DNA from: Callorhinchus milii
Lineage: Eukaryota
Length of the DNA: 64,000 nucleotides
NCBI RefSeq assembly: GCF_018977255.1
Contig: NW_024704742.1
Span: forward strand, 54,996,001 to 55,060,000
Direction of reading: 5' to 3'
The notes beneath the pieces are model-generated. The model ran no database searches, was not told the origin of the DNA, and was given only the letters and a program-made list of their open reading frames with translations. Positions within the stretch are counted from its first letter, which is position 1; each line of letters begins with the position of its first letter. Position numbers and translations under genes: made by a program. Below are positions 17,826 through 64,000 of this stretch, one piece after another.

Positions 17826-19030
17826 AACGACAACAACAAAAAGATTACATTTGTATAGCGCCTTTCATCCCAAGGCGCTGGACAGTGTACAGCATTTCAG
17901 ACCCAAGCTGACGTTGGGGGGGGTAAGGGAGGAGAGGGGAAGAGGGGTGGCCGATGGCATAGTCGAAGAGGAGGGTCTTAAGGCGGGACTTGAAGGAGGC
18001 TAAGGAGGGGGTGAGGCGGAGTGATTGGGGGATGGAATTCCAGAGGTTGGAGCTGAAGTCTCTCCCGCCAATGGTGAAGTGGGTGGGTCGAGGGACGTGG
18101 AGTAGACCGGAGCCGGCTGTGCGGAGGGGGTGGGTTGGTAAGGGGTTAGGAGGTCACAGAGGTAGGGTGGGGCAAGGCCATGGAGGGCTTTGTATGTGAG
18201 GATCAGGATCTTGAACTGGATCCTCTGAAGAATAGGGAGCCAGTGGAGTCGGGCGAGAGTGGGGAAGGTGGGGTCACTGAGTTTGGTGCGGGAGAGGACA
18301 CGGGCTGCAGAGTTCTGGATTATCTGCAGCCTGTGGAGGGAGGAGTTGGGAAGGTCGACAAGCAGGGCATTTGCATAGTCGAGCCTGGAGGTGATGAAGG
18401 CATGAATAAGAGTTTCAGCAGTCTGAGGTAATGGTGGAGTCGGGCGATGTTACGGAGGAGGGAAAGGCAGAGCGGGTCATGGCTTGAATGTGGGGGAGAA
18501 AAGACAGTTGAGGGTCGAACAAGACACCGAGGTTCCTTGGTGAGTTGTAGTGTGCAACCATGGAGGTTGATGCTGCCAGAGCCTGAGGTGCTGAGGCGCT
18601 GGCGAGAGCCAATCAGGAGGACCTCAGTCTTGTTCACATTCAACTTAGGAAATTTGCCCTCATCCAGGACTTGATGTCCGACAGACAGTCTGTCAGGACA
18701 GCAGTGTTCCTGGAGTTGAGGGTGGAGGCAGAAAGATAGAGTTGGGTTTCATCCGCATATATGTGGAAGTTAACCACATGTCTGCGGATGATCTCACCAA
18801 GGGGGAGCATGTAGATATTAATGAGGTGAGGGACAAGGACAGAGCCCTGGGGGACGCCAGACCTGACAGTGCGGCGGTGGAGGAGAAACCATAAGAGGCA
18901 ACGAAGTGGAGACAGTCAGAGAGATAGGAATCGAACCAGGCAAGGGCAGGTCCGTGAAGATTGAGTAAAGCGGAGAGGCGGTGTATGAGGATGGAGTGGT
19001 CGACAATGTCGAAGGCGGCAGAGAGGATGG
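17826..19030 (-). mobile_element. 5'-truncated, decayed L2-clade LINE (C-terminal part of RT, 3' UTR and (TTG)n tail)
   Basis: The minus strand encodes [19 protein letters not shown] and [13 protein letters not shown] with frameshifts. The tail is at 17826. Confidence 0.9.
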
Positions 19031-22669: not shown

Positions 22670-23853
22670 CTTACTGTATAACAACCAGTATAAAGCTTCA
22701 GGTGGATTATTTTTCTTGAAGGTGTTTGATTCCTCTTTTTTCTACTAGGGAGCAGCTCTGGTTGCTGACAGCTAGGCTCGCCCAAGTGACACAGTGTTTT
22801 TAGGTGTAAACTTTGACAGTGAATATCAAGCAGGAATTTCAACCACTGGTGTGTCGCAGTCAAGCCTGATCTTGAACTCACCTGATATTCAAACACACTG
22901 TGATCCCAGCAGAGAGTGAGTGGATAGCAATCAGGAACAGGAACACTGCCCACTTTTCCTGCTGAGCCCAGTGGTTTTGCACAGACTGACCTCACATTCA
23001 GCACAGACCAGGAATTAAATCTGGGAATATCCTGCTCAATGGCTCCAGGAACTCATGCCATCAACTCACCAAACCAACAGGTAACCCTTATCCAAATGAT
23101 TTGAATCCTGCAAAGTTGAGGGGTGTATTAAGTGTAATTGAACTATATTTGATCGTGTCAGTAAAATCACAGCTGTGACCTGTTGAGTAGTTTTATATAC
23201 AGTGTCCAACATGAGACTGATTTCCAAAGCACGACTTTGAAAAGCCAACAATTACTTTGTGGTACGAATCCCGACCATTTTTAGAAGGACATAATGTAAA
23301 AGTAGCATTGAAGTTCAGAAACCTTTGCAGCTTATCACACATTCAATTTGAAAGTGCTTCCAAGCTGTGACTTGCAGCAAACAAGAAGAATCCTTGTATT
23401 GGATATAGCATCTCTCACGTTGGTTAGACGACCCGAAGCTTAGCACGGGATTTACATTAAAAGGTAGTGACTGTTTTTTTTTTGCAGGCAAACAGGAATA
23501 CTGGAAGGGCTGGAGAGATATTTTGACACAGTGGACATATAATTCTTCCTTCTTTTCTCACCCTTTTCATACAAATGGATTTCAAAGAGATTGGTGTGAG
23601 TGCTTTTTGGGTCACTGCTGCAATTGCTCCAATTAGCTGTGTTTCTTCTGTCAGTACAAATAGAGGGAGATGTAGACCTGATGCTGATACAGTAGTTATT
23701 CAAACTTCACAGTTCCCTACTGTATCTCAGTCCTCAATTGCTGTGCCATCGTATTTGATCGGATACCACAAATACAGGCAGATCTGGTAAGGATTTCTTT
23801 TTAAACAAAGTTATTTCAGTTATTTTTTTAGGCAGGAGACTGAAAGTGTTTTA

Positions 23854-37761: not shown

Positions 37762-38137
37762 ATGATTCGTTGTGGCCCAGTGCTATCCTTCGCCCGTTGT
37801 CTGTTTCGGAGAAAAATCATAAGCAACGACAGCAGCAATGAATCAAAGCTATGCCGTTGCCTGACCACAGTAGACCTGATGGCATTGGGCATAGGAAGCA
37901 CTCTCGGGGCTGGGGTGTATGTCCTGGCTGGTGAAGTCGCGAAAGCAGATTCTGGACCCAGCATCATCATCTCCTTCCTGATAGCAGCCCTGGCCTCTGT
38001 GATGGCAGGTCTGTGCTATGCTGAATTTGGCGCTCGTGTCCCGAAGACTGGTTCCGCCTACCTGTACAGTTATGTGACCGTTGGTGAATTCTGGGCGTTC
38101 ATTACAGGCTGGAACTTAATACTTTCTTACGTCATTG
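37762..38137 (+). CDS. slc7a2: CAT-2 coding exon 1 (exon starts at 37747, ATG at 37762)
   Basis: Acceptor ttgttccttcag. Kozak aaaATG with A at -3. Encodes MIRCGP...[10 protein letters not shown]. Donor G|gtaagt. Confidence 0.96.
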
Positions 38138-39070: not shown

Positions 39071-39226
39071 GTACTTCAAGTGTTGCCAGAGCATGGAGCG
39101 GCACCTTTGATGAACTTCTTGGCAAACAGATAGGAGTCTTCTTCAGCAAGTATCTCAAGATGAACTCACCAGGATTAGCAGAATACCCGGACTTCTTTGC
39201 AGTCTGTCTTATATTATTACTGGCAG
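39071..39226 (+). CDS. slc7a2: CAT-2 coding exon 2
   Basis: Encodes (G)[16 protein letters not shown]...[14 protein letters not shown]; 156 nt; aag| acceptor and |gtaaga donor. Confidence 0.96.
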
Positions 39227-41075: not shown

Positions 41076-41241
41076 GTCTTTTGTCTTTTGGTGTGAAAGA
41101 ATCTGCTTGGGTCAATAAAATATTCACTGCTATCAACATCCTCGTTCTTGTATTTGTTATTATTGCGGGCTTTGTGAAAGGAGATTCAAAGAACTGGAAG
41201 ATCAGCGAGGAGTCACTCATAAACGTCACAGTTATCACAAA
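41076..41241 (+). CDS. slc7a2: CAT-2 coding exon 3
   Basis: Encodes (G)[17 protein letters not shown]...NVTVIT; 166 nt; ttttag| acceptor and |gtaagt donor. Confidence 0.96.
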
Positions 41242-43047: not shown

Positions 43048-43184
43048 GAACCTGTCGTCTTCAGTAAATGTTACTAGTGCTTACGGTGTAGGTGGTTTTA
43101 CACCGTATGGGCTATCTGGAATGTTAGCTGGTGCTGCAACCTGCTTCTATGCCTTTGTTGGGTTTGATTGTATTGCTACTACAG
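43048..43184 (+). CDS. slc7a2: CAT-2 coding exon 4
   Basis: Encodes [21 protein letters not shown]...[13 protein letters not shown]; 137 nt; tgtag| acceptor and |gtgaga donor. Confidence 0.95.
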
Positions 43185-43369: not shown

Positions 43370-43592
43370 GCGAAGAAGTGCAAAATCCTCAAAAGGCTAT
43401 TCCAATAGGAATCGTGACTTCCCTTTTGGTTTGCTTTGTGGCTTACTTTGGAGTCTCGGCAGCCCTGACCCTCATGATGCCTTACTATCTCCTGGATGAA
43501 AGAAGCCCTCTCCCTGTTGCCTTTGTATATGTGGGCTGGGGTCCTGCTAAGTATGCAGTGGCTGTGGGATCTCTCTGTGCTCTATCAACAAG
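43370..43592 (+). CDS. slc7a2: CAT-2 coding exon 5
   Basis: Encodes (G)[15 protein letters not shown]...GSLCALST; 223 nt; ttctag| acceptor and |gtatga donor. Confidence 0.96.
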
Positions 43593-44161
43593 GTATGAAA
43601 TGATTTAGTCTTCTTTTAAAATGACCTTTTGTAAAGCATGTTTTGCTGAGTTTTAATATAACAGTAGCTTAAATTTAGTTCTCTCCTCCATACATCTGGT
43701 CCCCACACTACATTCTTGAAAAACTAATGTAAGCAGCTGGTACTGTATAACATATCTATTTACAGGATATCAAAGTGGCTGAAGAATTCGTTAAAAAAAA
43801 GTTTACTGTAAGTCTGGCCATTTCGGACCTTGGAGTCTGCTCCTTCCACACAACCATGTGAAATTGCATTCCCATATTTAACTTACTGAATCTCCTAGGG
43901 GAATCATATAATAACAGATAAAACTTCCCATGGATTAAATTCAGAAATCTCTCTCTGCCCATCTAAAATAATATGAAGTCCCAGGATCCCAATGACATTA
44001 CATGAGAAAAGCTGGATTGTTGGTATCGAGAGACATGGTTGAGATTTTTATTATGAGCATCAGCATTGAGCAAATAGTTTCTGCCTTTCTATCTCTATTG
44101 ATAAATCTACTGCCCAGCATGAAGATAAGCAAGATTCCCAGTTCAATCTCAGGCTATGCTC

Positions 44162-44604
44162 CCGGGTGTGTGTTAATCTGCCTCAGTTGGTAGCACTCTC
44201 TCCTCTGAGTCAGAAATCTATGGTTCAAGCCCCACATCAAGATTTTGAATTCATATAGTCTGGACTGATAATCCAATGAAGTGCTGTGGGTCTGTCGCAT
44301 TGTTGGAGGTGCCATCATTTGAATGAGACATTAAACTGTCTGTCTGTTCAGGTGAATGTTAAAGGTTCCATGGCATTATTCAAAAAGCAATGAGAGTTTC
44401 TTCCTCTGTGCTGGTCAATAATCTCCAATAAAATTTATCACTTACCCGATGACTGTTTGTGGAACATTGCTGTGAGCAAATTGACTGCTACATGTCCCCA
44501 CAAAACACACAGTCACTATGCTTTACAGTATATCCTGTGAAGCACTTTGCCACGTCCTCCCAAAATGAAAGGCGATTCACATACCAAATGTGAAGATTAT
44601 TATT
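44162..44604 (+). mobile_element. Deu-domain SINE, near full length
   Basis: ctcagttggtagcactctctcctctgagtcagaa head, Deu body and (tta)n tail. Confidence 0.78.
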
Positions 44605-46496
44605 AGGAGTAGTATTATCTGTTTTCATTTGCATAATTTAGGATTTGGAATGTGAGCCTTAATTTTAAGACTTTCATTTTCCCTTTCCATCATTGTCCTG
44701 CAAACACTGAGACAATTGCAACACACCTCTGCTTCTGCTTGAAATCACTTACCTCTGCAGAAGATAGGGATTGAATTTGGAGTTTTTCTAGATTATGTGG
44801 CACCATATGGTAGACTGACCCATTTAGCCATCATGGGACCCTGTCAGATGCACTTTTTATTCCAAATAAATAGTACTGAGCCTCAAAAATATTGTTAACT
44901 AGATTTCCTTCTCTCATTCATTGTCTGTAGTTTTTGCTCATGAAATAGTATAACCTCTGTTATAATGAATATGCAAACGATATAGGTAACAATGTTTTGA
45001 TTTTGTTTGCTATACACAATACAGTGAAGTATTTATGAGAAATGTGTGTTAAGCCCATTCTGCATTATAGGTTTAGCTTTTGCTATACATTGTCAGCATT
45101 ATATATCTATATTTTATTTGTTGAATAAGAATGTCCTTGTAATAACATTGAAGTACGTCAAATACTGCGTTTTATTTGGAGACTCGTTGGAAGTGGGAAA
45201 ATGATATTTACCCAATAAGAGATTTTTGTGTATATTGAAACCTTCAAGTTATAAGATCAGCAACACTTTGCATTGCTAATGCTGAGCTCAATTTTCACAT
45301 CTACTGCAGTAGAGCAAGATGGATTGTTACCTTGTGCATTTTAACAATGATAGTTATTGGCCAATAGAGGATTAAGAGGAAAACATTGGGTGTTACTATC
45401 ATTGACCTGCGGTTGTACACAAAATATCTGGTGTAACGCATTCCACTAGATGTCTATTGATGGTCAAGAATGAGCCTGCATGCATATAATTCAAAGAAAA
45501 GCCTTTATAATGATTCAAAGAGACACCAGCCATGAAGATAGTTTGTTTGTAAACTGCACCAGGCCCAGCCCTTATTCTACTGGAATGACATTTTTGTGCA
45601 TGATATTCCATATCTCCGATGAGAAGCAGCCTTGCATATCATCATCAATTAGCCCAACAGCATCAGTAATACACAGTCCCTACGTATCACACAGAAGGAA
45701 CACAATAATTTAAAGCAAATATTTTACTTTTTGTAAATCGAGTTCAGTTCATTTAATACATTTTAGATGATGATCTACACATTGCAAAGTAACTAACGCT
45801 TGCAAAATAGTTTGAATGTGCAAAACATGTACTGATGACAAAATAACAAACCTTCTCAAGGCAAGAGTTGATTCTCGCCTCTCTGAAAGACGAGAAGGGC
45901 TCTGTTGAAGTGTGGAAGCAAATCTTGCAACCTAGACATTGAAATGTAATAAAAATTTTATTATCCATATTTTATATTATTTTACAGTTACATTACTGTT
46001 ATTATGTTACAGTTGTGTCATTATTACAGTTTGTCATCCATTTTCTTGTAAAGAATTGTTCTTTTGCTCTAAACTGGTAAGGGACAAGAATCACCTCAAT
46101 TTATTTCTCCCCAGTTGCTGGTTTTGCACTGCAGTGATTCAGTAATTTAATGCCTTGTGATATTTTCTCACATTTGCTTATCAGACTAATATTTCAGAAT
46201 CAGTTGGGATGCTAGCTTTGCTTAATATCCAAAGACCTCTTTGTCTTGTAATTATTGGTGCTACTCTGTGCATGAAAAAACTTTCAGAGACAAATTCAAC
46301 CTGGGCTTGGATTTTTGCTCAATTTATTGAGTATTCAGCATTTTAGAGCATACATGATTGGCAAATTCTTAAATATGCTCTTAAATTTGAAGCCAATTTT
46401 CTGTATATTTGTTTTAAGAACTACAAGAAATATACCGCAACATTAAGACTGACTTCACCAATTTTCCAAATTCTGGACTCTAAAATGCTACATAAA

Positions 46497-46841
46497 ATTA
46501 GAGCACTCGCCTCATAAGTGAGGGACCTGGGTTCAATTCCCAGCAGGGCGAAATGTTGGGCAAGTTTCCTTCCTCCATACGCTTCTGCTTACCTAGCAGT
46601 AAGTAGGACCCGTTTTTTAGTCGATTGACGGATTGCTTTTCCAGGGGTAATAATTCCTTCAAAAAAATATTGGTCACTTCAATCACGATTGTTTGGGGAC
46701 ACTGCTGTATGCAATTGGCTGCTGCGTTTCACCCACAAGACACACAGTCAATTCACTTTACAGTATATTCTGTGAAGTGCTTTGAGACGTCTCAAAGACG
46801 TGATAAGACGCTATTTCAAATGCAAGGATTATTATTATTAT
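46497..46841 (+). mobile_element. tRNA-derived SINE
   Basis: Same family as 25536, with the first part of the head missing. Confidence 0.88.
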
Positions 46842-47750
46842 ATAAGCAAAGTAAATCTAGACCCAAGTGGAATTTCTCCCCCTTGATCTTACCCCTTTAC
46901 AAATGAGACGATGCTTCGTTTAAAACCAGTGATCAATACAATGTGTGCTCAACAGCTTTGAAATTGCATTGAAGAAGAGCTTTGAACCACACAAAATGCA
47001 GCTCAAGTAATTACTAGCAAAAAGTGCTTCTCTTTTTTTTATTTAAACATTGATCATATTCTCTGAGTGATTAGACATTAAACTCAGTTTCTCTTTGTGT
47101 GGTCTGCAGAAGTAGTGCAGAACTTTAAAGATTTAATTGAATGAGCAACATTTTGCTCTGAGATGCTACCATGCATGGAGAGCGCTATATAAGTGTTGAT
47201 GTTTTCAAAATCAGTTGCAAAAAATTATAACGAGCCTAGATTTATGGTTTTAACTATTATATCTACATCTTTAACCATATTTTGTTTAAACAGTGAGTAC
47301 TGGTGACCTGATTAGCAAAGTTACTGAGTCTGATGGTGTGCAGGAAAACATACAAGCATTTAGGGTATTAATAGACACACAGATCTACATAATCAGTGGA
47401 CATGGTAGTCTATGGTGTTAAAGCTAGTGGGAGGCAGTTGAAAGGTTTTGATGGTTGAATTTCATTAAGCCCCGCTTAGTAACAGGTAATTCAGTTGGAG
47501 ATAAAATGAAGGGTGACAGTCTATTTTAGGGCAATCATGTGTGGACAGTAGAAGGAGTGGAGTTGGTACACTGAATGACCTTCTATGTTTCTGATGTACC
47601 AGAAGATAAAGGTCGTATGTGGAACTGTATTTCAATAGAAAGTGGGAGAAAGGCATCTTAAACACCTTCAGAAGTGGAGATCGGGAAGGGAGACAATTGC
47701 CAGAGAAGAGAACATTTTATTGATGTATTAGTTGTGCAGAAAGCAAAACA

Positions 47751-47920
47751 ATTAAAATGTAAATGATTAAAATCCAGTTTTTACTTTAAAGCATCATACT
47801 GAATCTGAGTTGCACAGGTTTCGACAAGTTGCTTTAAAGTAAAAACTGGATTTTAATCATTCACATTTTAATGATGAATGTTTCAATGATGAATGTGACA
47901 ACACATTCATCATTGAAACA
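47751..47920. repeat. Two adjacent inverted repeats (43-bp arms and 19-bp arms)
   Basis: 47751-47793 vs 47830-47872 (1 mismatch); 47879-47897 vs 47902-47920 (perfect). Confidence 0.92.
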
Positions 47921-48357
47921 AAATATTGTATCAATGGAATGTATATTACAGCATTGGGAAAACCCAACAAGAGTAATATTTATGTGATTTTATCATGGAA
48001 ATGTCAAATTTATATAATTTATTAACCCAGAGAAGAAAATTGGTTTCCAGAATTTCTGGGTTCGCCAAAATATCAATGCATATTTCTGATTCTACTTCTA
48101 AATGATGATTGTGGAGCTTCAACTTCAAGTCATATTTTGTGTGATTTTATTGCAAGACTCGACATTCACTTCCTCATTGCTTGTCCAGTGCATGTGCATG
48201 TAGACGACTAAATTCTGTCATCCTTGATGGGTGAACAAATTGTGGAAATTTCCCATTAGTCTCGTCTCATTAATCTGTCTAATGACTGTATGACTATTGA
48301 TGTGACACAGGAGGTGGGGGGAGGGATAGAGGAGGGGAAGTTTAGGAAGCAAGTATC

Positions 48358-48490
48358 AGATATAGAATTGCCCTGGGATCGCTGTTATCTCTTGTACTAG
48401 TGTGGTCTTCTGTGCAAAGCTCAAAGGAGAATTACCTTAGACCACACTAGCACAAAAGATAACAGTGATCCCAGGACAAACTCTATATCT
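48358..48490. repeat. Imperfect inverted repeat with arms of about 51 bp and a 30-nt loop
   Basis: agatatag...tagtgtggtct pairs with agaccacacta...ctatatct. Confidence 0.88.
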
Positions 48491-49153
48491 AGAGAATATC
48501 TTCCAGCCCTCTTTATAGACCAGCTTGCCCACCTTGCAGGCCTACCACCACTGTCTAACTCAGTTTGAAGGAGTTACTATGAAGCTCTTCCAGCTGAGGA
48601 ATACCCAAGAAAGCATGCCACTGAAGCAGTGTAGAAGGCCAAGACTGGAAAGGTCAGAACAGGAGAGGGAGGCGTCACATAGAGGTCAGGCCATGTTTGT
48701 CGTTAGAATGGAGATTTGGCAAAGCGACCTCTCAAACAACTCTTTTCTCAGTTTATACAGGAGCAGCAGCAAATTTGGTGTACAAAAATTGGAGGGGTGG
48801 GGTGGGTTATCAATTATTGTCTTATATGAAGCACATGGGGCTGTAGATAATAATGTATCATTTAAGGAACGATTTTACTTTTCCTAAGTGGGTGTAAGAC
48901 CGACCCAGACAAGGTGGGTTGAATGGTCTGTTTCTGTACTGTAACATTTTTGATATTATTTTGAATTTTTGGAGGAGGACAGAAGAGAAAAGTGGAACGA
49001 ATTGAATTACAACAGCAACTTTTCCTACAGGACAAGGAGAAATATGGGAATTTATGTGGAGTCTGCAGCGCAGTGTTTCATTTTCATTAATTTACTGCAT
49101 CCATTGCTGTGTCTCTGATTCGCAACGTGTGCATGTCTCTCCTCTTCATTCAG

Positions 49154-49293
49154 TCTGCTTGGTTCCATTTTCCCAATGCCTCGCGTAATCTATGCTATGG
49201 CAGAAGATGGGTTGCTTTTCAAAGGTTTAGCCGTCATCAACCCTAAGACGAAGACTCCAGTTGTGGCTACAATGTCATCGGGTATGGTTGCAG
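49154..49293 (+). CDS. slc7a2: Mutually exclusive exon, CAT-2B (high-affinity) type
   Basis: Encodes [47 protein letters not shown]; 140 nt; phase 2 in, phase 1 out; ttcag| acceptor and |gtgaga donor. Confidence 0.95.
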
Positions 49294-50328
49294 GTGAGAT
49301 TTTGTTGAGCGGAGGAAGAAGGAAATTGAGGAATTGTGCGGTATATATTTTTTTATGTATATATATATGAGCAAATGTTGAATGAAAATGACAGATAAGT
49401 CAGTGCATTCAATTTATGTCTAATTTTTAAAAATTGATTCGTAATTTGTATTGGCATTACACCGTTTTCAGTGTATTTTTCAAATGTATCAAACTAAAAT
49501 AACATAAAGGTGCTTAATTTTTGAATTGACATTGCTGGTCGGAGAATAGTTGGTTACAGCTTAGCAGAGCAGCATTCTTTCTCTAGGGTTGTCATTTTTG
49601 TTTCAGTAGATAGCAGTTCATGTTTCTGCCCTCTTGTAACCTACCCTGTTGAAAAGGCATATCTGAAGGATAGTGGTAGGGGATGCAATACATTCTGAAA
49701 TCACCTAAGTTAGCGAGCATCTGATATCCTTTTGGCTTTTTTTAAAAAATCTTTGTACATTTTTCTCTCATCGAAATTTAACTGCAAGTCACTGCTCATT
49801 TAAAAGTTTCAGTGCTGATGGTTGATGAGCTGGAGCTCTGTGCATGGAAAATTGCCTCTTGCCATGATAAAGTTATGCCTCAGAATTATGTCCATAACCA
49901 GCTCTTTCTGAAGTTTTAAGCTTAATGCAGAGAGACAGCCCATCCACAGTAAAGTTAATCCGCCCATTACAAAGAAATACAAATCTTTATGTTTTCCACT
50001 TAATGATTTTCATTAAAATAGCTTAATGGTTCACAACAAAGTACGTTTTGGGAGCAGAGTAAAAGGAGCCTTCACTCTGCGTCTAATCACATTATACCTG
50101 ACCTCGAAGTGCTACATTATGACACCCAGAATGCAGTGTCCTGTTATCTGGCACCACCATCACTCACCTCTGTGAGCAAAAGCTAATGTAATCAAAGCTA
50201 GAGATTGAGGGCCTGACTGCTGGCTTTGACATTCTATATTTGCTAAATGTGTATCCATTTAGAACAAGTAGCACTAGAATGTGTTGTGTGTATATTTTTT
50301 NATTTGAACTGTGACTTCCTTTTTTTAG

Positions 50329-50465
50329 CCTGTTGGGGTCCATGTTCCCTTTACCCAGAGTTATATTTGCTATGGCACGAGATGGTTTACTGTTCAGGTT
50401 TCTGGCAAAAGTGAGTAAGAGGCAGACGCCAATTGCTGCAACAATGGCATCAGGGGTCATCTCTG
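50329..50465 (+). CDS. slc7a2: Mutually exclusive exon, CAT-2A (low-affinity) type
   Basis: Encodes [46 protein letters not shown]; 137 nt; same phases as the 2B exon; tttttag| acceptor and |gtaagc donor. Not shown on the + strand in the ORF track. Confidence 0.95.
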
Positions 50466-51504
50466 GTAAGCTGATGTCACTTGTCTTTTCACCCTGAAGA
50501 GATCTCATGCTTTGATTTGAGCATGTCTGGGGCTTGCTGCACTTTCCCATGAAGCATGCAGACTCTTGGTGCCTTCATTAATCAGGTGGTGAGGACTGTG
50601 CTACTAGTAGATATGCCGGGTCTAATAAGTGAAATTTATGGAAGCAGATATTTTAATCCGCTTTACATTTTACGATAAATGGATTAAATCATTTTCTGGC
50701 GTCTGTTTAAAAGACTGAGTGAATCCACTTCATTTTATGAAATGAAAATGACTGCTGAAAAAAAATTGCCTTTTGGGAAAAAAAGTTTTTTTTAAAAAGA
50801 AAAGAAGCCAAGCATATCTACCTACAAAGGCAGTTGTTCATGTGATTATTTAAACAGTGATAATGAGATTAAAATGTGACCTTTATAAAACCACCAGACC
50901 AGATATTTCAAGTCCACTCAGACAGATAATGTCAAGTAATATTTCTTCAGAGTGACTTAGTTGTGTCCATCTCAGAATGAACTTGTATCAATATAAAAGT
51001 ATTTTACAAATCACTTATTTGTGTTTCCACTAATCTCTGTAAATTTTGACAATTGTTATTACTTCTGGTAAGTGCTAATTCCAAGAATTTGAAGTTCCAC
51101 TTTATATTTAAACCGTATTGGCCTGAGACAGATTACAGAGTTTCTTAACCCTCTCTGGGGGGGGAGGGGAACCCAATAGAAGCCTGGAAAGTGCAGAGAA
51201 ACCCACACTTCTACCGAGAGGCAGACTAGGTAGTGAGTTTGTTAAGCAAAGTTCCAGCCATTAAGATATCTCTTTCACGTGAAAATTGTTCTGTATTCAG
51301 TAAAATAAAAGTAACGCCGAATTGCATTTGCTCCATTCACGATATACCAACTGCTCTAAAGCGTGAGTCTAAATTCCAAGTTGTAAGAATGATTAATACC
51401 TTCCTGAGTGTGTTATATTGAATCCTAAATACCATGAATTCTTAGTGTCCCAAAATCTGCTGGATTCAGAATACAGGGCAAATCATAATATTCAGCTTCC
51501 TGCT

Positions 51505-51640
51505 GTAAAATGGCTTGTCAGATTGCCATTGACGTCACTTCCTGCTCATTGCACGTACCACCAGTCCCACTTCTTACCACATCTGTGCCAGGCGCAGAAA
51601 GCACCACTAACATTATTTCGCAAATGATGTCGGCCATTTA
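51505..51640. promoter_or_regulatory. Candidate intronic enhancer (ETS-CRE composite, C/EBP-like, HRE-like and YY1-like motifs)
   Basis: TGACGTCACTTCCTG at 51530-51544, AAAATGGC at 51507, CACGTA at 51552, ATTTCGCAAA at 51615. Confidence 0.35.
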
Positions 51641-53686
51641 TTCATGTTTTGCTTATAACTTGGCCTCTGAGCCAATGGACCCATTTGATCGTGAGGTTCA
51701 CCTGGATATGTCATATATAATCCCAGATCCCTGCTCTTTCCATTTTGTGCTCTTTAGACATCGATCCAGTCCCTTTTCAAATGTTATTGTTGCCTCAGCC
51801 TCAATAGCTACTCCTTGCAAACATCAAATCCTATAGGAATTTGGGGGATATTTTTTTCAGATTTTTACAGATAGTTCAGACATTGTGGGTCACCATAGCT
51901 TTCATGGGAGTTTGTTTGGTGTTATATCTTTTATGAAAATTGTTAAACAAGGATTCATGGCCCAGACAAAAGGGACTTCCTCCTGGTGACCTGGCCAACA
52001 ATCCCCCAAGTCCCCAGGGTCTCTGCCAAAGGTATGAAGGCAGGTATGAAATGATTAGCCTGTGTCTCAAGAGCAAGCCAAGACATTGAGGAGTAAGTCA
52101 CAGAAGCAGAGAGGAGCCATGGAACCAGCATAAATCGCTGTTCAACTGCCTGGCTTTAAAATGCTGCAACTGATAAAACACTTGAGGTACATCCAAGCCC
52201 ACCAGCAGGAACTTAAATCCACTCATTTCTTCAGGATGCCAAGAAAACAGGTGCATTTAGGTTATTTTGGGTTTCGTTGATAGCCTTCCACAATAGACTA
52301 AGATTTATAAGCATGTCCAGTTGTTCGCTTTACTGCTGACATTAAATCTTCGTGTTGATGTAGAGCAGCAAATGAATCAGCTGTACCCCACTCAATCTAC
52401 TCTCTTATCAATGGGCGAACTTTCAGGCATTCTGTCTCCACTCTTTGGAACTCCAACCCAGAACCCCTCTGGCTTGTTTCCGGCCTCACTCCTTGCCACT
52501 CTTCCTCCTTCCCCATTTTTAAATCCTACCCTACTAGCTTTTGGCTACCTTTCAACCCCCACCCCCTGCCCTCAGCTCGAGTTCCTAATCAGCTGTGTAA
52601 CCGGTTTGAGATACCCTCCCAATATGAAAGGTTTTACTTAAATATAGATTGTAATTACATCATATCCAATACATGCATTGTTTATTAAATTGTATTGTAA
52701 ATGCAAGATTATAAGTCACTATTGGCCAATTACATTTGACACTTCATCAGTTTAACTTGTTCCTGTGACAGAAGTCACTTAGAACCCAGAAGGAATGTAT
52801 TCAATTTTAATGTAATTTTCAATGGCACATTATTGTCTTGGAATTCTGTCTGGCTGTAATTAATGAACAGAATTGTAATCTCTAACACTGTTTTGAGTTT
52901 CACTGTGAATAAGGATGTGTTGGAAGATTTAAGCATGATCGGAATTTGTGTTTCAACTTTTAATGTTTGATACTCTACCAGGTTACTGGTTATCTGTTAG
53001 TTAATGAATGGGGAGCTGGTTACCTGCAAGCACTGGCGAGCTGTTTCATTCTACCCACCCTATCAATTTTAGCACCAATAATAACACTTAGCACAAAATA
53101 ATTTATTACAAAACTTTTTAAATGCACTTGGTGACAAACTGTTGGCATACTTTGCAAATCACTGTAGCATACAATTAGCAAATTTGTATATAATTTATAT
53201 ATAATTGCATTTTAGCGCTCTGAGATGCCGTCCAGCGTGGAGGGCGCTATATAAATCCAAGCTGTTGTTGTTGTTAACTGAGGCTTCCCCAGTCTGCATG
53301 CAGTGGAAACAACAGTACAGAAGGATCGGAGCAGGCTCAGCTGTGATCCCTTCTATGATCAACTAGATACCATCAATAGCTCTTTAAGCTTGTACATAAA
53401 GAATAGTCTCTTGGGCATAATATTGAATGGCTGCCAGCTCTTGTGGAACTATATCTCCAACAAAGAGTTGACGACTTTAGAAGGGAAAAAATATGGTAAT
53501 GCAAATTACAAATGGAACTAACTCATTGGCACAGGCTTGTGCATTCTCCGATGCATGCAATTACATGCTGAAGTAGACTTTTTCAATCAAGCAATAAACT
53601 ATAGCCTGCAAGGCAGACATGTAAGCCAACCAACAGGTAGAATTTGACTTAAAACTGCTGTTCAATTCCTCGTGCTATTTTGGCAG

Positions 53687-53789
53687 CTGTCATGGCGTTC
53701 CTGTTTGACCTGAAGGCCCTAGTGGATATGATGTCTATCGGAACACTTTTGGCATATTCTCTAGTTGCAGCCTGCGTTCTTCTCCTGAG
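53687..53789 (+). CDS. slc7a2: CAT-2 coding exon 7
   Basis: Encodes [35 protein letters not shown]; 103 nt; ggcag| acceptor and |gtagga donor. Confidence 0.96.
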
Positions 53790-54199
53790 GTAGGAACTGA
53801 TATACATCATATCTAATGTTCAATAGACAACAGTCCTGTTTCACTGAATGATATTCAAGAGAGAGCTTATCATTCAAGAGGGGGTGTAGTGACAATGCAC
53901 ATAGCTTGTGAAATAGTGAAAATCAACAATTCATTTCAGTTGGTTCAATTCAGTTTACTTCAATATTTTTGATAATGCATTGATAATCAGGGACTTGATG
54001 TGTCTTTTAGAAATCATAACCAGAGATTGTTCATGACATCTCTTTGATTCAACTTGTTCAGTTAGCTCTCTCCACACGATGATCCAATGTGATTGATAGA
54101 GAGAATAGCTCTCTGCTCTCAATCCCAGGTGATGGACACCTAAATCTAGATCCTAATGGTATCCTCCTCTGCCCTCCTTCCTTGCCTAATGACCAGTGA

Positions 54200-54545
54200 G
54201 CCCACAACAGGACTTTGAGCTCACAACCCAAGCTGACACCCTATATTGCTGGAGGTGTCAACAGCTGGAGGAGACATTAAACCAAGTCTTCACCTGTCAG
54301 TTCATATGAACGTTAAAGAACCCATGATACTATTTTGAAAAGAGAAGGAAGTTTCGCCCAATATCCTTGCCAACAATCCTCCTATTGATCACTCACTTCC
54401 TGGCTATTTGTGGGACAGTTGCTGTGTTCAAATTGTCTGTTGAGTTCCCTACAAATTCCAGGCACTACAATTTACAGCAATTACTGTAAAGTACTTTGAA
54501 ACATTTTGACATCGACATTAGGTCAGTTTCAAGGATTATTATGTT
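54200..54545 (+). mobile_element. Deu-domain SINE
   Basis: ggaggtgtca...gagacattaaaccaag...gttaaagaacccatgatactatt. Confidence 0.7.
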
Positions 54546-55014
54546 ACCACTGCACTTCCCTACCGCTGCCCTCTACTCCACCCACACAGCTAGTCAAATA
54601 TTTGTCACCTAAAGAAATGTTGTTTTGGCTTTTCTACCCTCTTCTGAAGATAGTTCCTCATGCTGAGGTATGGTTTCACTTATGGCACCAGCGCTCCAGC
54701 ACTTCATCCAAGTAGTTTGAAATATCAATTAGTATCCATGAGCTTGTGAACCCAAATGAACATTATTATTTTGCTCACTAAGATGGTTGTAAAGTTATTA
54801 TTGTAGGGTGGGGGAAGTATGCCTCCTTTAAGTTAAAATATTACTATTAACCTCCCTTAGCTCACCCTGGTGTCCTGACCAAAGATAGTTCTAAAACTAC
54901 CAGAAGAGTTAGTATAAAATACATAGTGAATATTTGTGAAATTAGAAGAACATAACATTGATTTTATTAAGAAGTTTATATTTCTAAACATGAACTTATT
55001 TAAAAAACAACCAG

Positions 55015-55229
55015 GTATCAGCCAGATGCAGACTACAAAAAACAAAATTGCTCTCCAGAAACAGAGAATCTCACAACTCAAGAAGAAGGTGAATTGGACA
55101 CGAGTGTATCAGACCTCCGAGTGTCTGACCTAAAAGATCAAGACATCAGCTGTTCAACAATAATAAACCCCTCTATGATTGCAACACAACAGACATCAAA
55201 TGTGGTGCATGGCTGTGTGGGGCTTATAG
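55015..55229 (+). CDS. slc7a2: CAT-2 coding exon 8 (variable loop)
   Basis: Encodes (R)YQPDADYKKQNCSPE...PSMIATQQTSNVVHGCVGLI; 215 nt; open frame with phases fitting both neighbours; |gtacgt donor. Confidence 0.9.
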
Positions 55230-55841
55230 GTACGTGAAGGTAAACAATACAACAATACAAAATTACATTTGTAATTATCATTGTCCTCCTGCCTTTCACG
55301 TCAGGCGGACAATGAGAATATTTCTGGTGAGTATTCATGGTTCTATTAATTTAGTGCCATGCCTTTGTTAAAGTGACCTCAACTTTATCCATTTTGAATT
55401 GGGAAAGAAAATTCTTTGATGGATGTAACTATCCTGCTGTGCTCCATCATGACGTGCATCAATTTTTGCAGCTGTGCTCAATGGTATGACTCAACCACAA
55501 AAGGAGCTGGTTAGGAAGAATCCTTACCCCCAGACATGTCTGCCTCCCCAAATACTACCAATGAGCTTGTCTGTCATCAGCAGTGTCCTAGAGTAGTGCG
55601 GACCTGCTTGGCTCAGGACTTGGCTACCGAGACCACCACAGAGGATTGACTTGATTTTAATAGTCAATTGTCAAGTGTGTCACCTTGGAGGCAGTTCAGT
55701 TTCAAGGAGACCCTGCTTACCTCCCCCACCCTCTGGAGGATAGTCAACTCCCCCCCACCCCTCCCCCCCACAAGGATGATAGAGTAATTGTGACAGAAGC
55801 AGGAATAGTCTAACAGTGACAGAGGGAGTGTAAAGGTGACA

Positions 55842-56228
55842 AACAACAACAGGATTCCATTTATAGAGCGCCTTTCATGTCGGGAGGACGTCCCAAGGTG
55901 CTGTACAGTTGGGTCAGGACCCGAGCAGGGGGGAAATGGTCAGGGTGAGGGGAGGGAAGGGAGGGAGCGAGGAGGGGGTAGAGAGTCGAGAGGGGAGCTG
56001 AAGGCGCGGTCAAAGAGAAAGGTCTTGAGACCGGCCTTGAAGGAGGAAAGGGAGGAAGCGGCGAAGGCACTGGGGGATGGAGTTCCAGAGCCTCGGGGCT
56101 GAGAGGCTGAAGGCCCGACCACCGATGGTAGGGCGGTTGGGCGGGGGATGTGGAGCAGACCGGAGCCAGAGAAACGGAGGGTACAGGCAGGTAAGTAAGG
56201 GGATAGTAGGTCGGAGAGGTAGGAGAGG
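55842..56228 (-). mobile_element. Young L2 3' end
   Basis: (CAA)n tail; the minus strand reads TIGGRAFSLSAPRLWNSIP. Confidence 0.88.
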
Positions 56229-56358
56229 CTCTGGAACTTCAAAGGCTTCAGATAAAATTATTCTAAAAGGAAGCAACATTGAAATGAAAATTATTAGAGT
56301 TAGTTAGTGTGGATTGTACATCTACACTGAATAACTGAATTCACTTTCTTTTCTTTAG

Positions 56359-56525
56359 GTATTTTGGTTTGTGCGTTGAGTGTGCTGATTACGCACCACA
56401 TTGAAGCACTCCTTTCAATGGTGACCTGGAGCATAGCACTTCTTGTTGTGCTCCTCGCGATATTTGCTGGGATGGTCTTCATCATATGGAAGCAACCTCA
56501 AAATCAGAACAAAGTGGTCTTCATG
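56359..56525 (+). CDS. slc7a2: CAT-2 coding exon 9
   Basis: Encodes (G)ILVCALSVL...IIWKQPQNQNKVVFM; 167 nt; ctttag| acceptor and |gtaagc donor. Confidence 0.95.
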
Positions 56526-56699
56526 GTAAGCAGTTCTGTTGTTGAATTCAACAATGGGGAGGGAAGGGAGACCCAAGCAGGTAAACAAATTGTGTATCAC
56601 AGGCATTGTATGATGTTTCCTGAAAATGTTCATTGCTTGCCACATTATGCTGCTGCTGTCTAATCTGGGCTAGAGGAGTCTAAAATGCAATATTTAATT

Positions 56700-56930
56700 A
56701 GTAGATTGGCGGATCACTTTCCCAGCGATAATAATAATCCCTTCAAAAAATAAATAAATAATAATAATAATTTGGTCACTGAAATCACGGCTGATTGTAG
56801 GACACTGCTGTGCGGAATTGTCTGCCGTGTTTTACCCACAAAATATACAGTCAATTCACTTTACAATATGTCCTTTGAGACGTCTCAACCACGTGATAAG
56901 GCACTATAAAAATGCAAAGATCATTACTAA
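56700..56930 (+). mobile_element. tRNA-SINE 3' half
   Basis: Family body and tail. Confidence 0.75.
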
Positions 56931-58157
56931 TATTTTCCAAATTTCACATTTTAAATTAAAATTTGAAAAATATTCATGCAATTGTGCAGCATTGAGTCTG
57001 GTTTCTGGTTCTTGAGTTCCCATTTTTGAACTTCAGAACAAAAAATGCCGACTTTCAAAGCCCAAACATTAGAAAAGACTGACTTTGTCTGACTTTTGGG
57101 TTGTTTCTCAGACACATAAAGCCCCAAAAGCAAAACCCTAGGCATGTTTGTGATTGTGATTCTAATTGCAATTGCAACCAGCATTTAATTTTGAAAGTCA
57201 TTTGAAAACAATTTTTAACATCTCATAATCATGAGTAACAAACCAGGCATTGCAATTAACAAAACAAATCCAGTTGCAAACACATTATTTAACATTTCAA
57301 TAAATACCATGAAGTCCCCCAGGCTTTCAGAAGCTTTGCATCAGGATTTAAGATTATAACCTATGCTGATAACTCAGTGTAGTAGTATTGGGGAAGTGCT
57401 GCACCATCTGAGTGTGCCTTTTTTGGAGGTGACATAAAACCAAGTTCTCGATTGCCTGTTCAGGTGGGCGTTAAAGATTCCCTGGCACTATTTGAAAAGA
57501 GAAGGGAGTTTTCTCAGTATCCTTGTCAGCAATCCTCCAAATTAATTGATCATTCAATTGTGGGAGAATGACTATCATGTTCCTACAAAAACAGTTGCCA
57601 CACTTTTTAATGTGATGAGGTGCTATCTTCACTCTATCCAACACTGGCCCTGGTACCCTCCATATAAAATATTCCCTTGCACTTCCCCTGTGGACTTGTG
57701 GAGTATTTGATTACTTTAGGAATATATGAAAGCAGGAATAGGAGGAGGCCATTCAGCTCTTTGAGTTTATGACACCAGTTTGGTATATTTTGGGCAGATC
57801 TTTTAATCCCAATTCCCCTCCCTTTCGCCATATAACTTTATAGCTCTACTACCCAAGGCACTTTATGAAAAGCAAGAATTTGTCTTTCTCGCTTTTAAAT
57901 ATTGCTATTCTGTCAGTGCAGCTTTTTGGACAGAGCATTCCATATTTTATTTCAATCCATTCTAATCTTATTTCCAGTTAGGGTAATTACCTAATGGAAC
58001 TCTTTTTTTACTCTGCCTCAGTTAGCTTTGCTAACATACACAGCTGTGTCAGAGGTTTAGTAATCCCACAGTCTCTGTGAATTATTACTTATGAAATATC
58101 GAATTGTAGGATTTTAAGACGGGCTAAAAATTGGTTAACACTTGTACTTAATTATAG

Positions 58158-58492
58158 AATAATCCTTGCATTTGATATTACACCTTATCACGTTCTTGAG
58201 ACGTCTCAGTGCGTTTCACAGAATATACTGTAAAGTGGATTGAATGTTTATTTAGTGGGCAAAATGCGACAGCCAATTGTGTACAGCAGTGTCCCACAAA
58301 CAGTCATGGATTGAGTGACCAAATTTTTTTTGAGGGATTATTACCCCCGAAAAGGGATCTGCCAATCGATTAACAACTTTTTTTTTACTTATTGCTAAGT
58401 AAGCAGAGGCGTGTGGAGTAAGGAAACTTACCTAAGGCTTCAGCCCATCCAGCTTCCGAGGCGAGCGTGCAAACCACTACGCTACGGGAGTC
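58158..58492 (-). mobile_element. tRNA-derived SINE
   Basis: Reverse complement of the family, with the head at about 58490. Confidence 0.85.
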
Positions 58493-58634
58493 TACTTAAA
58501 TATAGGAAGGAAGCATTTTAGGAAAGAAAGGAGAAAAAAAGAAATTTCAAGCGATGTGAGCATCCTTCCGATGCGAAAGGCACTACTTAAATAAATTGTA
58601 CTGTATTGTATTGACGCTGTTGATTTTTTTCTAG

Positions 58635-58743
58635 GTGCCGTTCTTACCATTCTTGCCTATTGTCAGCATTTTTGTCAATATTTACCTAATGATCCAGTTG
58701 AGTGTGGACACTTGGATTCGCTTTGCTATATGGATGGCTGTTG
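58635..58743 (+). CDS. slc7a2: CAT-2 coding exon 10
   Basis: Encodes [36 protein letters not shown]; 109 nt; ttctag| acceptor and |gtaaga donor. Confidence 0.96.
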
Positions 58744-59010
58744 GTAAGAATCTGAATCTGTGAAATTTTTTTATTTAAATACAGTGACTTAGAACGCGAT
58801 GAGAATGTGGAAATCTCTTCCAAAATTTTAATTGATAACATTGTACAACTAGGATAAATTTCCTTTACAGCAGAAACTTGTATTTGTATTAGCAGTCTTC
58901 ATACAGGGTAGCACCTTGGAGCATTATTAAAATGTAATGTGAATAGCAGAGCCGAACAATAACTACAGTCTCAGCAGTGCTCAATTGTCTCCTTTTTTTC
59001 TTGTTTACAG

Positions 59011-59183
59011 GGTTTGTCATCTACTTTAGTTATGGCATCAGACACAGTGTTGAAGGGCACCGTGATGATGAGTCAATAAACAGTGAAATAGAGAATAAAG
59101 ATCCCGACGAAGGCCTGGACAATGATGACAATGCAACCGAGCTTGAACAGTTCATTCTGAACGAGAAGACAAGCGAATTTTAG
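59011..59183 (+). CDS. slc7a2: CAT-2 last coding exon
   Basis: Encodes (G)FVIYFSYGIRHSVEG...FILNEKTSEF followed by TAG; tttacag| acceptor. Confidence 0.96.
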
Positions 59184-61299
59184 CTGTGAAAGGTGACACA
59201 GACACCAGTCTGTTACTCAGCAATATCACATCTGTGTTATAATGAGCAGTATAACTATGCTGACTGTTATACCTGAACTATGTCAAATATCTGTAAGCGT
59301 CAGCTTTCTACTTACAAATTAATATTTTTGGAAGAGCTCATTGTTTGCCTAGAAGTATATCTGCCTATTAGCTGCTGTACTCTGTGTCACATTTGCTAGG
59401 GCCGCTACATTCAGTGGCTCTGCCGTTAATCTGAATCTCCATCAGAAATGCTCTGAGTGAAAAGTTAAGTATTTTTTTCCCCACAATAAAGGACTGACCG
59501 CTGTAGAAGAAAGATAAACGACATTTAGTAGGAACCAAGAGTCTAACGATATGTTACTTTCTTCTTTGCAACATATATCGGGAGCAGAGAAAGAGCATTC
59601 CTGATACAAGTCAAAAGATGATGCAAATTATTTTTTATAGCCTTTAGACAAAGCTTATTGATAAACCTAGGACTTTTATAATTACTGTTACTGGTGTAAT
59701 TGTAAGCTGTGTGTGTTTTAATTGGTGCTACTACATTCAATTATAATATGATATACAGATGGAGCAACATTATCCCATCCGTTATGATTAAAATAAATTT
59801 ACACTGAAAAAGAGCAAGATTTCAACAGAGGTTGGATACAAAACAAAAGATGAGTTAAAAAAAATGAACGATTGGGAAGTTTAAAGCTGACACTTGTGTT
59901 AATTAATCTGCAACATCAGGCTTGTAGGCACGGAATTTTAGTGTATCTGAGGGATTCAGATCAATTAGTTTGGAGATATTCTGAAAGTGGATGACAGCCA
60001 TTCATGTACAAAAACTATACAGAAAACAAATCTAGTATACAAACTCGTCTTAATTTGCAAACTATTTATCAGCGATAAGGAAGGCGTTCACCTACAAAAT
60101 CCAGTCGCTACACTTTACAGTAAATCCTGTGAAACACTTAGAGACATCCTGCTGGTGTGAAAGGCGCTGAATCAAATGCAAGGATTATCATTGTGTAAAG
60201 GTTTGGTGCTGACAAATCCTTAGGAGGGCAAGTTTTTCTTGCTGAACTATTTTTGGTAGTGCTGTATTTTAACTTCATGCGATGAATTAGGTTTGGAAGT
60301 TATCTGGTCTTTTTAACCTCTTCTTTCAATTTTGACTGGATCAACAACAAGAACTTGCATTTATAGAGCACCCCTTGCACGGAGAATCGTCCCAGTGCGT
60401 TTGGTGGTTATGTCAGTTAGAATCAAAGAAATGTACAGTATATAAAGAGGCTATTTGGCCCATTGAGTGTGCACTTGCTGTCAGAGCAAGGTGTTTGAGT
60501 TCTATAGCAAGACTTCCAGATGAGTGAAAATGGGCACCTTGAGTACCACCTCCAATTGGATGATCACATTGCTATTGGCAGTGCTGGAGAAATTTACATC
60601 CTCACCATTGTTAGCCATGGAGATGTGGACATCAGGGTTAATGGGTTGTGGAATACATTACCATAAATGGTTATTTGTGGCTGGATCAATATAATCTATC
60701 AAAAGGCAATTGGATAATTGGATAAGTACCTGAACAGTAAAGATATTAAGGATTATATATATTATATATGAGGAGAGAGCTGTAAGGAAAGATTAAAATA
60801 AAGAGTGATTTAGAGACCAGGTAGCAATAATACAGACCCAGTGGATTAAATAGCCTCCTTCCGTGCTGAAAATCTGTGCTGTACCTGTCTAGGTCTGTTT
60901 CACCAGCCTGGCTGGAAGTTGATGGATGGGGAAATGATGATTTTTTGATGAGCTATAGGATGTCACAATGTTGTGACATAGTCTAATGGTCTAGATGTTT
61001 CATTTAATGCATATCAATTGGGTTGTTCTTGTTCTAAAAAAACATTGTGATGATGTAAACTCTACTGGGCTTGTGAAATCCACAAGTGTATTCGCAGTGA
61101 TGGTTTTCTAAAAGTGGAGGAAAACTAGAAGTTACAGTATTGGTCCCACATAGCCAGTGATATTTTTGCTGTTATTAACTTATAATAGTTAAGAGTATTA
61201 TAATACATTACTCAGCAGCTAACCGTGTTTTGTGGCAGGAGTGGGTGGTATAAGGTGAAACCAGCGGATTCCATTTTCAATTTAGCTTAAGATAGGTTT

Positions 61300-61990
61300 T
61301 CCTCAAATCCTGCATTGAACTCTGTCGTTCAGCTCTCTTCAAACCCTACATCCAACCTCTCAGCCGCTCAGCTCTCCTCAACCATATATCAAGGCTCTCA
61401 CTCAGTTTTTCCTCATTTCTGCAATATCTATACCACTACCCCTTCCCCAGGGCTGTCGAGACACTCAGCTAAGCCTTCATCATTTCCAGTCTCAACTATT
61501 TACAATTCTCTGCAGCCCAAAACCTCTCCCACATCAGGCTCCACAAGCCTGTTGTCCTCATCTTTGCTTGGCTCCCCATCCCCCAGCAGGTACAAGATCC
61601 TTGTCTACACTTTCAAATCCCTCCATAGCTTTACCCCACCCTCCCTCTGAGTCCTCCTGCAACCATACTGCCCTGATGCTCCCTCTCCCCTCAGCAAATA
61701 CCTGCTTCATGTCCAATTCCCCCCCTTCCCCACCCTAATCAGCCCCACCATTGGTGGAGGAGCTTTCAGCCATTCTGCTCCCTCTCTCTAACTTCATCGA
61801 ATAACTACAATGTAGGACATGGCAGAGTCGCTCCACTTTGCCCCTCCCTTCAAACCATACCTTGAGCTATATCTATTTCTCTGCGCTTTTAGCCACTTCC
61901 TCCCCAGTTTAAATCCCAGTCAGCTGTCTGCAGTACTTTGAGATGTCCTCCTAACGAGAAAAGTGTGGTATGAATGTATTTTTTTGTTGA
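61300..61990 (+). mobile_element. Old L2 fragment
   Basis: ttggctccccatcccc...aagatccttgtctacactttcaaatccctcca...ccattggtggaggagctttcagcc. Confidence 0.75.
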
Positions 61991-62849
61991 TACGTATTCT
62001 GCCGTCTTTGCTCCTATGTGCAGTTCTTTCTTCAGGTTCTTGCAGAGGCACAATACATATCCTGAATGACTGTAAGCTTTAGTGCCAATATAACTTGAAA
62101 GAATGTAATTGCGAAGAGTAATCGTGTAGGGGATCCAAGGTCCATTGCAGTAATGATTGCATTTTAATCTGTGTTCCATCTCCATAAGTCTCTGCAGCCC
62201 AATGGACTGGAAATGGACAAAATAGAAGTACAGTGACAGCTCTTAAAGCTAAATTAGCTTGTTTAAACCTAACCTTCTCACATTCTATTGTTTCCTGATT
62301 TTTAAATTGTTGTAAACAAACACAATGATAGTCAGACAACAAAAACTTGCATTTATATGATATCCGTCACACAGCATAGCGTCTCGGAGGTCTTAATATT
62401 AAGTAGTTGGATGCCGAGCCAGGGAGATAGGGTAGGTGACCACAGGCATGGTCAAAGAGGGAAGCCTTCAGGTGTGATCTGAAGACACAAAAAGATGTGG
62501 CAAGGTGGAGGGACTGAGGCAGGGAGTTCCAGAGTGTCGGGGTGTAGTGACTGAAAGCATGGCCTCCGATGATGGAGCCGAGAAGTTGAAGGAAATGCAG
62601 AAGGACAATAGTGATGTATTACAAAAAGACTGATGGCACAGATGCTTCTGCTGCTCATGTTTAGTCGACTGATCCAGCTACTTGTACTTGTTGAATTTGG
62701 TGAATTTCTTAAATATTTTACCTTGTGCATTTTTGATCCATTCAAGTGTAAACGTCCTGGAATGCAGTGCAGTAATCGCAAGTCATTTCAAAAAGATACA
62801 ATGATTCATTGTACATTGGTATCATTGCTTTAAAATATATATCAAGCTA

Positions 62850-62855
62850 AATAAA
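62850..62855 (+). terminator. Candidate distal polyadenylation signal (proximal AATAAA also at 59485 and 59792)
   Basis: AATAAA preceded by TGTA motifs in AT-rich non-repeat sequence. Confidence 0.35.
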
Positions 62856-63315
62856 ATTGATATTCTATATTAAATGTAAGATCTATTCTAGTTGAAGCAT
62901 TATTAAGTATTATTAAGCATATTAATGAAACACCGATAATTTTAATTTAACATTTGACAAGAACTAATTTTTCAGATGTGTGTGAACAGGATTGGGCGTA
63001 AGAAGGGTTTGAGAATTCATGACACAACCCGTTCCTAATCCTAAAGTACCCAGTGGAGAGAAAGGAAGGAAAGACTGAAAGAGTTCTAACATAGATCACG
63101 TTCTCTTGGTCAAAGTAGCAACAGGTGTTGGCAAAACCTGACCAACAGGTTGCCTGCCTACATTGTTGGCTGCAAAATGGCATGTGATGTGGAGCCTATT
63201 TGTTTTAAAACTGAGATTTTGGGGAAAAAAGTAGTAACTCTAGAGCAGTTGTTGACAACCTGTGGCCCATGGGCCACTTTTGGTTCATGGTGGGATGTCA
63301 AGAAGTGGCCCGCAG

Positions 63316-63490
63316 AACAACAACAACAAGATTGCATTTATAGAGCGACTTTCACGTCGGGAGGACATCCCAAGGCACTAGACAGTTGGGTTGGGACCCG
63401 AGCAGGGGGGAAATGGTCAGGGGGAGGGAAGGGAGGGAGCGAGGAGGGGGTAGAGAGTCGAGAGGGGAGCTGAAGGCACGGTTGAAGAGA
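63316..63490 (-). mobile_element. Young L2 3' end
   Basis: Near-identical to the copies at 36781 and 55842. Confidence 0.85.
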
Positions 63491-64000
63491 ACACCTGCAT
63501 CAGTCCAGGCAAGTCCGCAGCAAATCAATACCTTGTTTCCGGTAGTTACTGAGCCACGACACCATGGTGCAGCAATAAATAAAGAAAAGTTCAATAAAGA
63601 AAAATGTATTTGGTTTGGCAACCACTTTTCTAGAGAACACCGAAAACTGCTAATTTCTTATTATTTTTTAAAAAAAACAAATGAAATAGATGTTTATTTT
63701 TGGAACTGCCGCCAGCAATCACATAATAATTCCAACCATTAATTTCACTCAATCCTCATTTCTGGAGCATTACAGCTCTGTAAAGGGTCTCAGCACCAAA
63801 GGTCAAGTACAAAACTGTACACCCAGAGCTCTGGTGGGAAGTTCAGTTTTGTTATAACGATAATACTGCTCTCCAGCAGAAAGTCGTTTTGTGTCATTCG
63901 TTCCCTGAAAGAATCCATCTCACTATCAATGCAGCAAATGTTTATTTTTAGTCTGTGCTGAAGTCGAGAGGAATGAAGATCTGGCGCTCCAAGATTATCG

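Follow-up and report, generated by a model that had tools for sequence, protein, structure and literature searches.

The CAT-2A/CAT-2B exon pair of SLC7A2 in Callorhinchus milii and its counterparts in SLC7A1

The CAT-2A/CAT-2B switch is a known feature of SLC7A2, in which the A isoform, made in liver, muscle and pancreas, lacks trans-stimulation, and the B isoform is inducible. The difference in affinity between them is said to have been traced to Arg369 and Asn381 by Habermeier in 2003. In mammals, the B form combines micromolar affinity with trans-stimulation and the A form has an about tenfold lower affinity (PMC5803215). The two forms come from human exons 7 (CAT-2B) and 8 (CAT-2A), where the B exon of 140 nt lies upstream of the A exon of 137 nt at a distance of 246 nt (PMC8373072, supplement). 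In the catalogue of Martinez Gomez et al. [quoted passage not shown] SLC7A1 and SLC7A3 had no match in the table rows searched of that catalogue, and “SLC7” does not occur in the main text of Abascal 2015 (PMC4494069).

Related systems are found in other carriers of the family. For slc7a1a and slc7a1b of teleosts, a zebrafish paper from 2020 described exons 6a/6b, which it likened to CAT-2A/2B (PMC7584565); they share the position, the one-residue length gap and the association with Arg, but belong to a paralogous gene. In the bacterial homologue GkApcT (PDB 5OQT), Arg334 is the equivalent of the Arg site and forms a salt bridge to the lateral helix, and the change R334E drops the IC50 from 2 to 0.4 uM (PMC5803215). 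GkApcT and mouse CAT-1 (9UAT, 9FQT) have the same fold family as the CAT-2 described below, and residues 344-388 of mouse CAT-1 are the aligned counterpart of exon 6; however, both have one fixed sequence where SLC7A2 has two alternative exons. The CAT-2 isoform terms that were searched for are absent from the mouse CAT-1 structure paper (PMC13022406).

The window analysed here is a stretch of 64,000 nt from contig NW_024704742.1 of Callorhinchus milii, in which SLC7A2 lies on the plus strand; its 11 coding positions begin with the ATG at 37762 and end with the stop codon at 59181-59183 (Table 1). The Pfam domain AA_permease was found in coding exon 5 with an E value of 2.3e-5, slightly short of the curated cut-off. 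The gene model with the A exon (653 aa) is identical, letter for letter, to UniRef A0A4W3JJD6 of C. milii, which shows that the guess of a cartilaginous fish made from the letters alone was right, and the A exon is 100% identical to the C. milii CAT-2 records. The UniRef cluster of A0A4W3JJD6 also contains RefSeq XP_007890992.1, whose label “isoform X2” hints at the existence of an X1; this record uses a short upstream exon with an ATG (23039-23080) and thereby has 19 extra N-terminal residues. In a quick backbone tree of 25 proteins made without exon 6, with SLC7A3 left out, the gene joins three shark and ray SLC7A2 proteins (SH-aLRT 96) inside an SLC7A2 group (92) that stands apart from SLC7A1. 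This tree, together with the sizes and order of the human exons, bore out the earlier assignment to SLC7A2 with CAT-2B first and CAT-2A second.

Table 1. Coding exons of SLC7A2 and candidate regulatory sites around the alternative exons, in positions of the window
Feature	Position	Strand	Remark
Coding exon 1, from the ATG	37762..38137	+	top solved-structure matches are CAT-1 chains
Coding exon 2	39071..39226	+	
Coding exon 3	41076..41241	+	
Coding exon 4	43048..43184	+	
Coding exon 5	43370..43592	+	constitutive donor 5' of the exon pair
TGCATG, candidate repressor site	49130..49135	+	24 nt 5' of the B-exon acceptor
Coding exon 6, B type (CAT-2B-like)	49154..49293	+	140 nt; R369/E site occupied by Glu, Asn-bearing long loop
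Intron separating the B and A exons	49294..50328	+	1035 nt, ordinary GT-AG
Coding exon 6, A type (CAT-2A-like)	50329..50465	+	137 nt; R369 site occupied by Arg (CGA codon), loop shorter by one codon
Two GCATG, candidate enhancer sites	50521..50558 (at 50521 and 50554)	+	+56 and +89 past the A exon
Coding exon 7	53687..53789	+	constitutive acceptor 3' of the exon pair
Coding exon 8	55015..55229	+	
Coding exon 9	56359..56525	+	
Coding exon 10	58635..58743	+	
Final coding exon, through the stop codon	59011..59183	+	

No neighbouring gene was seen when the long open frames outside the gene were read by eye. Rfam gave no match over 50310-64000. The minus strand carries the broken reverse-transcriptase-like frames of a LINE at 17848-19063, presumably of the L2/CR1 type, and many short copies of repeats that end in TAT/TTA tails are scattered across the window.

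Mapping the whole gene confirmed the exon coordinates, lengths, spacing and identical phases given in the preliminary description. Both alternative exons have AG/GT bounds, and both have a length of 2 mod 3. The five upstream coding exons sum to 1058 nt, therefore both are entered in phase 2. In spliced models, the B exon only gives 654 aa and the A exon only gives 653 aa with a shared stop. When both exons are joined, translation ends at 50412 after 427 aa, and when both are skipped, it ends at 53706 after 359 aa; these early stops lie 648 and 575 nt, respectively, ahead of the last junction. A full-length carrier is obtained only with one of the two exons, as had been claimed. The two exon peptides are identical at 28 of 46 positions (61%; E 3e-20 for the pair), and their alignment score is 144 against a maximum of 43 across 2000 shuffles; tblastn found no third copy in the window. 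What we see is thus a pair of adjacent, homologous exons of the same phase, of which both or neither breaks the frame, as in homologous mutually exclusive exons, and it is the same in kind as the tandem exon duplication-derived substitutions of PMC8373072.

The human gene has the same exon sizes in the same order, B then A, although its intermediate intron is 246 nt and that of C. milii is 1035 nt. By hand count, the C. milii B exon is identical to the human 140-nt exon at 39 of 46 residues (85%), and the A exon to the human 137-nt exon at 37 of 45 (82%). Pristis, Hemitrygon, Pristiophorus and Leucoraja, which are 4 of the 7 cartilaginous species fetched, and likewise Amia have both isoform types of SLC7A2 annotated as predicted records. 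Public ab initio gene models often wrongly join both exons in tandem, from which it follows that the pair is present in pangolin, narwhal, snakes, stork and many teleosts. It is very probable that C. milii SLC7A2 bears the ancient vertebrate mutually exclusive pair of coding exons 6, and we infer from conservation and from the isoform pairs annotated elsewhere that C. milii uses each of them.

Each SLC7A2 mRNA would keep one coding exon 6, the B exon leading to a CAT-2B-like carrier of high affinity and the A exon to a CAT-2A-like carrier of low affinity and high capacity. The exchanged 45-46 residues span the last part of TM8, the cytoplasmic hairpin and the beginning of TM9, where Arg instead of Glu alters the packing of TM8. 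Splicing would take one of the two exons in vivo, and transcripts with both or neither would be removed by nonsense-mediated decay, their stops being far beyond the usual 50-nt rule. Regulated choice with decay of the wrong products is the likeliest mechanism, and the choice would be made by tissue splicing factors, not by steric exclusion or U12 sites. Candidates are A1CF, which promotes the A exon in human and mouse beta cells (PMC12714141), and possibly RBFOX; alpha cells are also reported to favour the A exon (PMC13262736). A consensus scan found no U12 donor among the 11 introns, and it placed the first branch-like site of the intervening intron at +130, with none within the first 120 nt. 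Besides, the AG-free zone 5' of the A acceptor is an ordinary 49 nt. Together these features mean that the exclusivity does not look hard-wired. Long-range pairing within the intervening intron was also considered, but the inverted repeats that turned up were only three, all of them weak (73-92%, 12-22 nt) and chance-like. The single N of the whole window is at 50301, 28 nt 5' of where the A exon begins and within the region of the branch point.

Six classes of motifs were counted (two RBFOX forms, QKI, MBNL, A1CF-like and PTB), and only the RBFOX forms stood out. The RBFOX motif GCATG occurs 19 times in SLC7A2 introns, and 17 of the 19 are located within the three introns around the pair (43593-53686), which make up 50.8% of the intron length (binomial p 4.7e-4, for one gene of one species picked after the first site was noticed). 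GCATG ranks 2 of 735 five-mers and its antisense CATGC counts 9 vs 7; the antisense 6-mer CATGCA is also higher in the flanking introns (6 vs 3, and 3 more outside the gene), in part by palindromic overlap. By the usual RBFOX position rule, the sites in Table 1 would repress B and promote A. In muscle, A1CF is not the obvious driver, and the motif cluster suggests how muscle might select CAT-2A. None of the papers listed in our literature search links Slc7a2 with RBFOX. For the liver RBFOX2 paper PMC9771820, “Slc7a2” is absent from supplement files 1-12 of 26, and the remaining files may bear on this lead.

To figure out the age of the pair, we turned to its distribution over paralogs and species, with exon types assigned by motif and length. 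The pair is not confined to SLC7A2. Besides the teleost slc7a1a and slc7a1b, the annotated SLC7A1 of 8 out of the 11 cartilaginous species fetched (chimaera, sharks and rays, C. milii included) comes with both exon types, and no paper on a shark SLC7A1 exon pair was listed in the literature search, which covered journals outside subscription. Mouse CAT-1 and the one frog CAT-1 record examined are of B type, and the lungfish/frog “CAT-2-like” paralog is of A type in all four records. Among cyclostomes, two hagfish have A-type exons, and the sea lamprey (Petromyzon marinus) has A-type and B-type proteins in two different gene models whose contigs are given the same length, which could reflect a separation of splice isoforms. 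Within the lamprey B-type model, one block is repeated, perhaps as an artefact of assembly or annotation.

When 36 exon peptides of SLC7A1 and SLC7A2 were placed in one tree, A and B types separated with a support of 100/99, on 46 columns only, with a bootstrap that had not fully settled and with the gap treated as missing data. The teleost exons 6a/6b group by type with the SLC7A2 exons. The mean exon identity is 0.72 for 1A-2A and 0.77 for 1B-2B, against 0.58 for 1A-1B and 0.55 for 2A-2B. When cyclostome and three invertebrate exons were added, the B exons formed one group (83/89) and the A exons were not resolved as one, because a long moth branch falls among them. These sequence comparisons speak with good probability for a single duplication before SLC7A1 and SLC7A2 separated. 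The suggestion of the preliminary description that the pair predates the split of cartilaginous and bony vertebrates is correct, but it is not new and it understates the age, which is already given as Vertebrata in the table of PMC8373072.

The residues behind the affinity difference were then compared. The C. milii exons agree with the human determinants and loops, with Glu and the long loop bearing Asn381 in the upstream B exon and Arg369 and the short loop in the downstream A exon, and the motifs AMAEDG and VINPK (2B) and AMARDG and KVSKR (2A) are where they had been said to be. By analogy with human CAT-2 and GkApcT, the C. milii isoforms would differ in affinity. We surveyed 154 distinct exon-6 peptides out of 318 proteins, a set that is biased to the queries used and includes some faulty gene models. 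It turned out that Arg is present in 87 of 101 short-loop peptides, with 14 lacking it, and in none of 46 long-loop peptides (7 more long peptides, with Asp, Glu or Lys at the site, were mis-measured by the loop pattern). At the Asn position, the 46 long-loop peptides have Asn (34), Ser (10) or His (2). Plant CAT4 and GkApcT combine Arg with a long loop, therefore Arg by itself does not define low affinity. In the A exon of SLC7A2, Arg is found in 3 of 7 cartilaginous species, which are C. milii, Heptranchias (sevengill shark) and Leucoraja (skate), and Gln replaces it in the other four, three rays (Pristis, Hypanus and Hemitrygon) and the sawshark Pristiophorus. This change possibly arose more than once, and since the Arg codon of the window is CGA, a CpG transition could explain Gln, as far as can be judged from this codon alone. 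In cartilaginous SLC7A1, by comparison, Arg is kept in the A exon of all 10 species (10/10). The named affinity determinants vary across species.

Such variation leaves room for the view that the exons are used singly, with little difference in affinity between the C. milii isoforms, and that the pair is kept for another property (turnover, trans-stimulation, or a regulation through phosphorylation or trafficking). Besides the Gln of the rays and the sawshark, some teleost SLC7A1 A exons carry Asn, His, Ser, Cys or Gln at the Arg site, the B exons of some species carry Gln, Ser, Lys or Thr, and the exons stay conserved where the named determinants change. However, the Arg/Glu effect extends to the bacterial homologue GkApcT (PMC5803215). 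C. milii retains both human determinants in both exons, including the Arg that several teleost slc7a1b A exons have lost, and Arg is never found on a long loop among the 46 peptides, so that we regard this view as unlikely. Somewhat less probable still is the idea, raised in the preliminary description, that cartilaginous fishes use the switch for urea retention through arginine or ornithine flux. Cartilaginous fishes do make urea. In mammals, CAT-2A is the isoform of liver and muscle (PMC5803215), which fits the idea; but the pair is kept in ammonia-excreting teleosts and in reptiles, birds and mammals and is older than jawed vertebrates, the named determinants of the C. milii exons show nothing specific to the lineage, and the key residue varies within the urea-retaining fishes themselves. 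The link to urea thus found no specific support, because the pair is pan-vertebrate and CAT-2A has Gln for Arg in 4 of 7 cartilaginous species. A study of CAT-2 in urea-retaining fishes was not among the literature matches listed, judged by titles and the starts of abstracts.

The remaining alternatives concern the use and the origin of the exons. It might be supposed that C. milii uses the A exon only and that the B exon is a silent leftover, since the fetched C. milii SLC7A2 records are of A type in five of five cases (four in the CAT-2 cluster and a fifth) and no annotated B isoform was seen among them. Yet these records came from a search with the A exon as query, four species of sharks and rays do have annotated B isoforms, and the C. 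milii B exon is open, with intact splice sites and the close match to the human exon given above, which points to continued purifying selection; a silent B exon is highly improbable. As for the origin, tandem exon duplications can recur in paralogs, and the exon alignment is short, so the pairs of SLC7A1 and SLC7A2 might be separate duplications that later converged. Against this, the AU test rejects a grouping of the exons by paralog (p 0.022), and every A-type exon, also in hagfish, in lamprey and in the lungfish/frog “CAT-2-like” paralog, is one codon shorter than the B-type and the insect and crustacean exons, a gap that the trees treat as missing data. We give separate origins little credit, and a single duplication is preferred.

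A wider reading joins these results, and we put it forward tentatively, as a combination that is more likely wrong than right. It would make the pair an ancestral feature of the entire vertebrate CAT subfamily, with one duplication before the split of SLC7A1 and SLC7A2, followed by a sorting of the exons between the paralogs, with a functional low-affinity CAT-1A and an RBFOX position code. SLC7A2 would have kept both exons, and tetrapod SLC7A1 apparently only B. Both would also have been kept by the SLC7A1 of chimaeras, of sharks and rays, and of ray-finned fishes, which would give these animals a hidden, putative low-affinity “CAT-1A”. The candidate code would consist of the site before the B acceptor that represses B and the two sites after the A exon that promote A.

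In conclusion, the switch of C. milii is real, but the gene was already annotated, and the switch, its residues and its vertebrate-wide age are already published, so that C. milii is one more species for a known switch. The parts worth following are the A exon of shark CAT-1, the Arg-to-Gln change of the rays and the RBFOX cluster. Judging by annotated records, CAT-1 of sharks and chimaeras, the textbook high-affinity carrier, seems to have an A-type isoform, and the Gln that several rays and one sawshark naturally carry in place of Arg would offer a test of the R369 model that nature has already set up.
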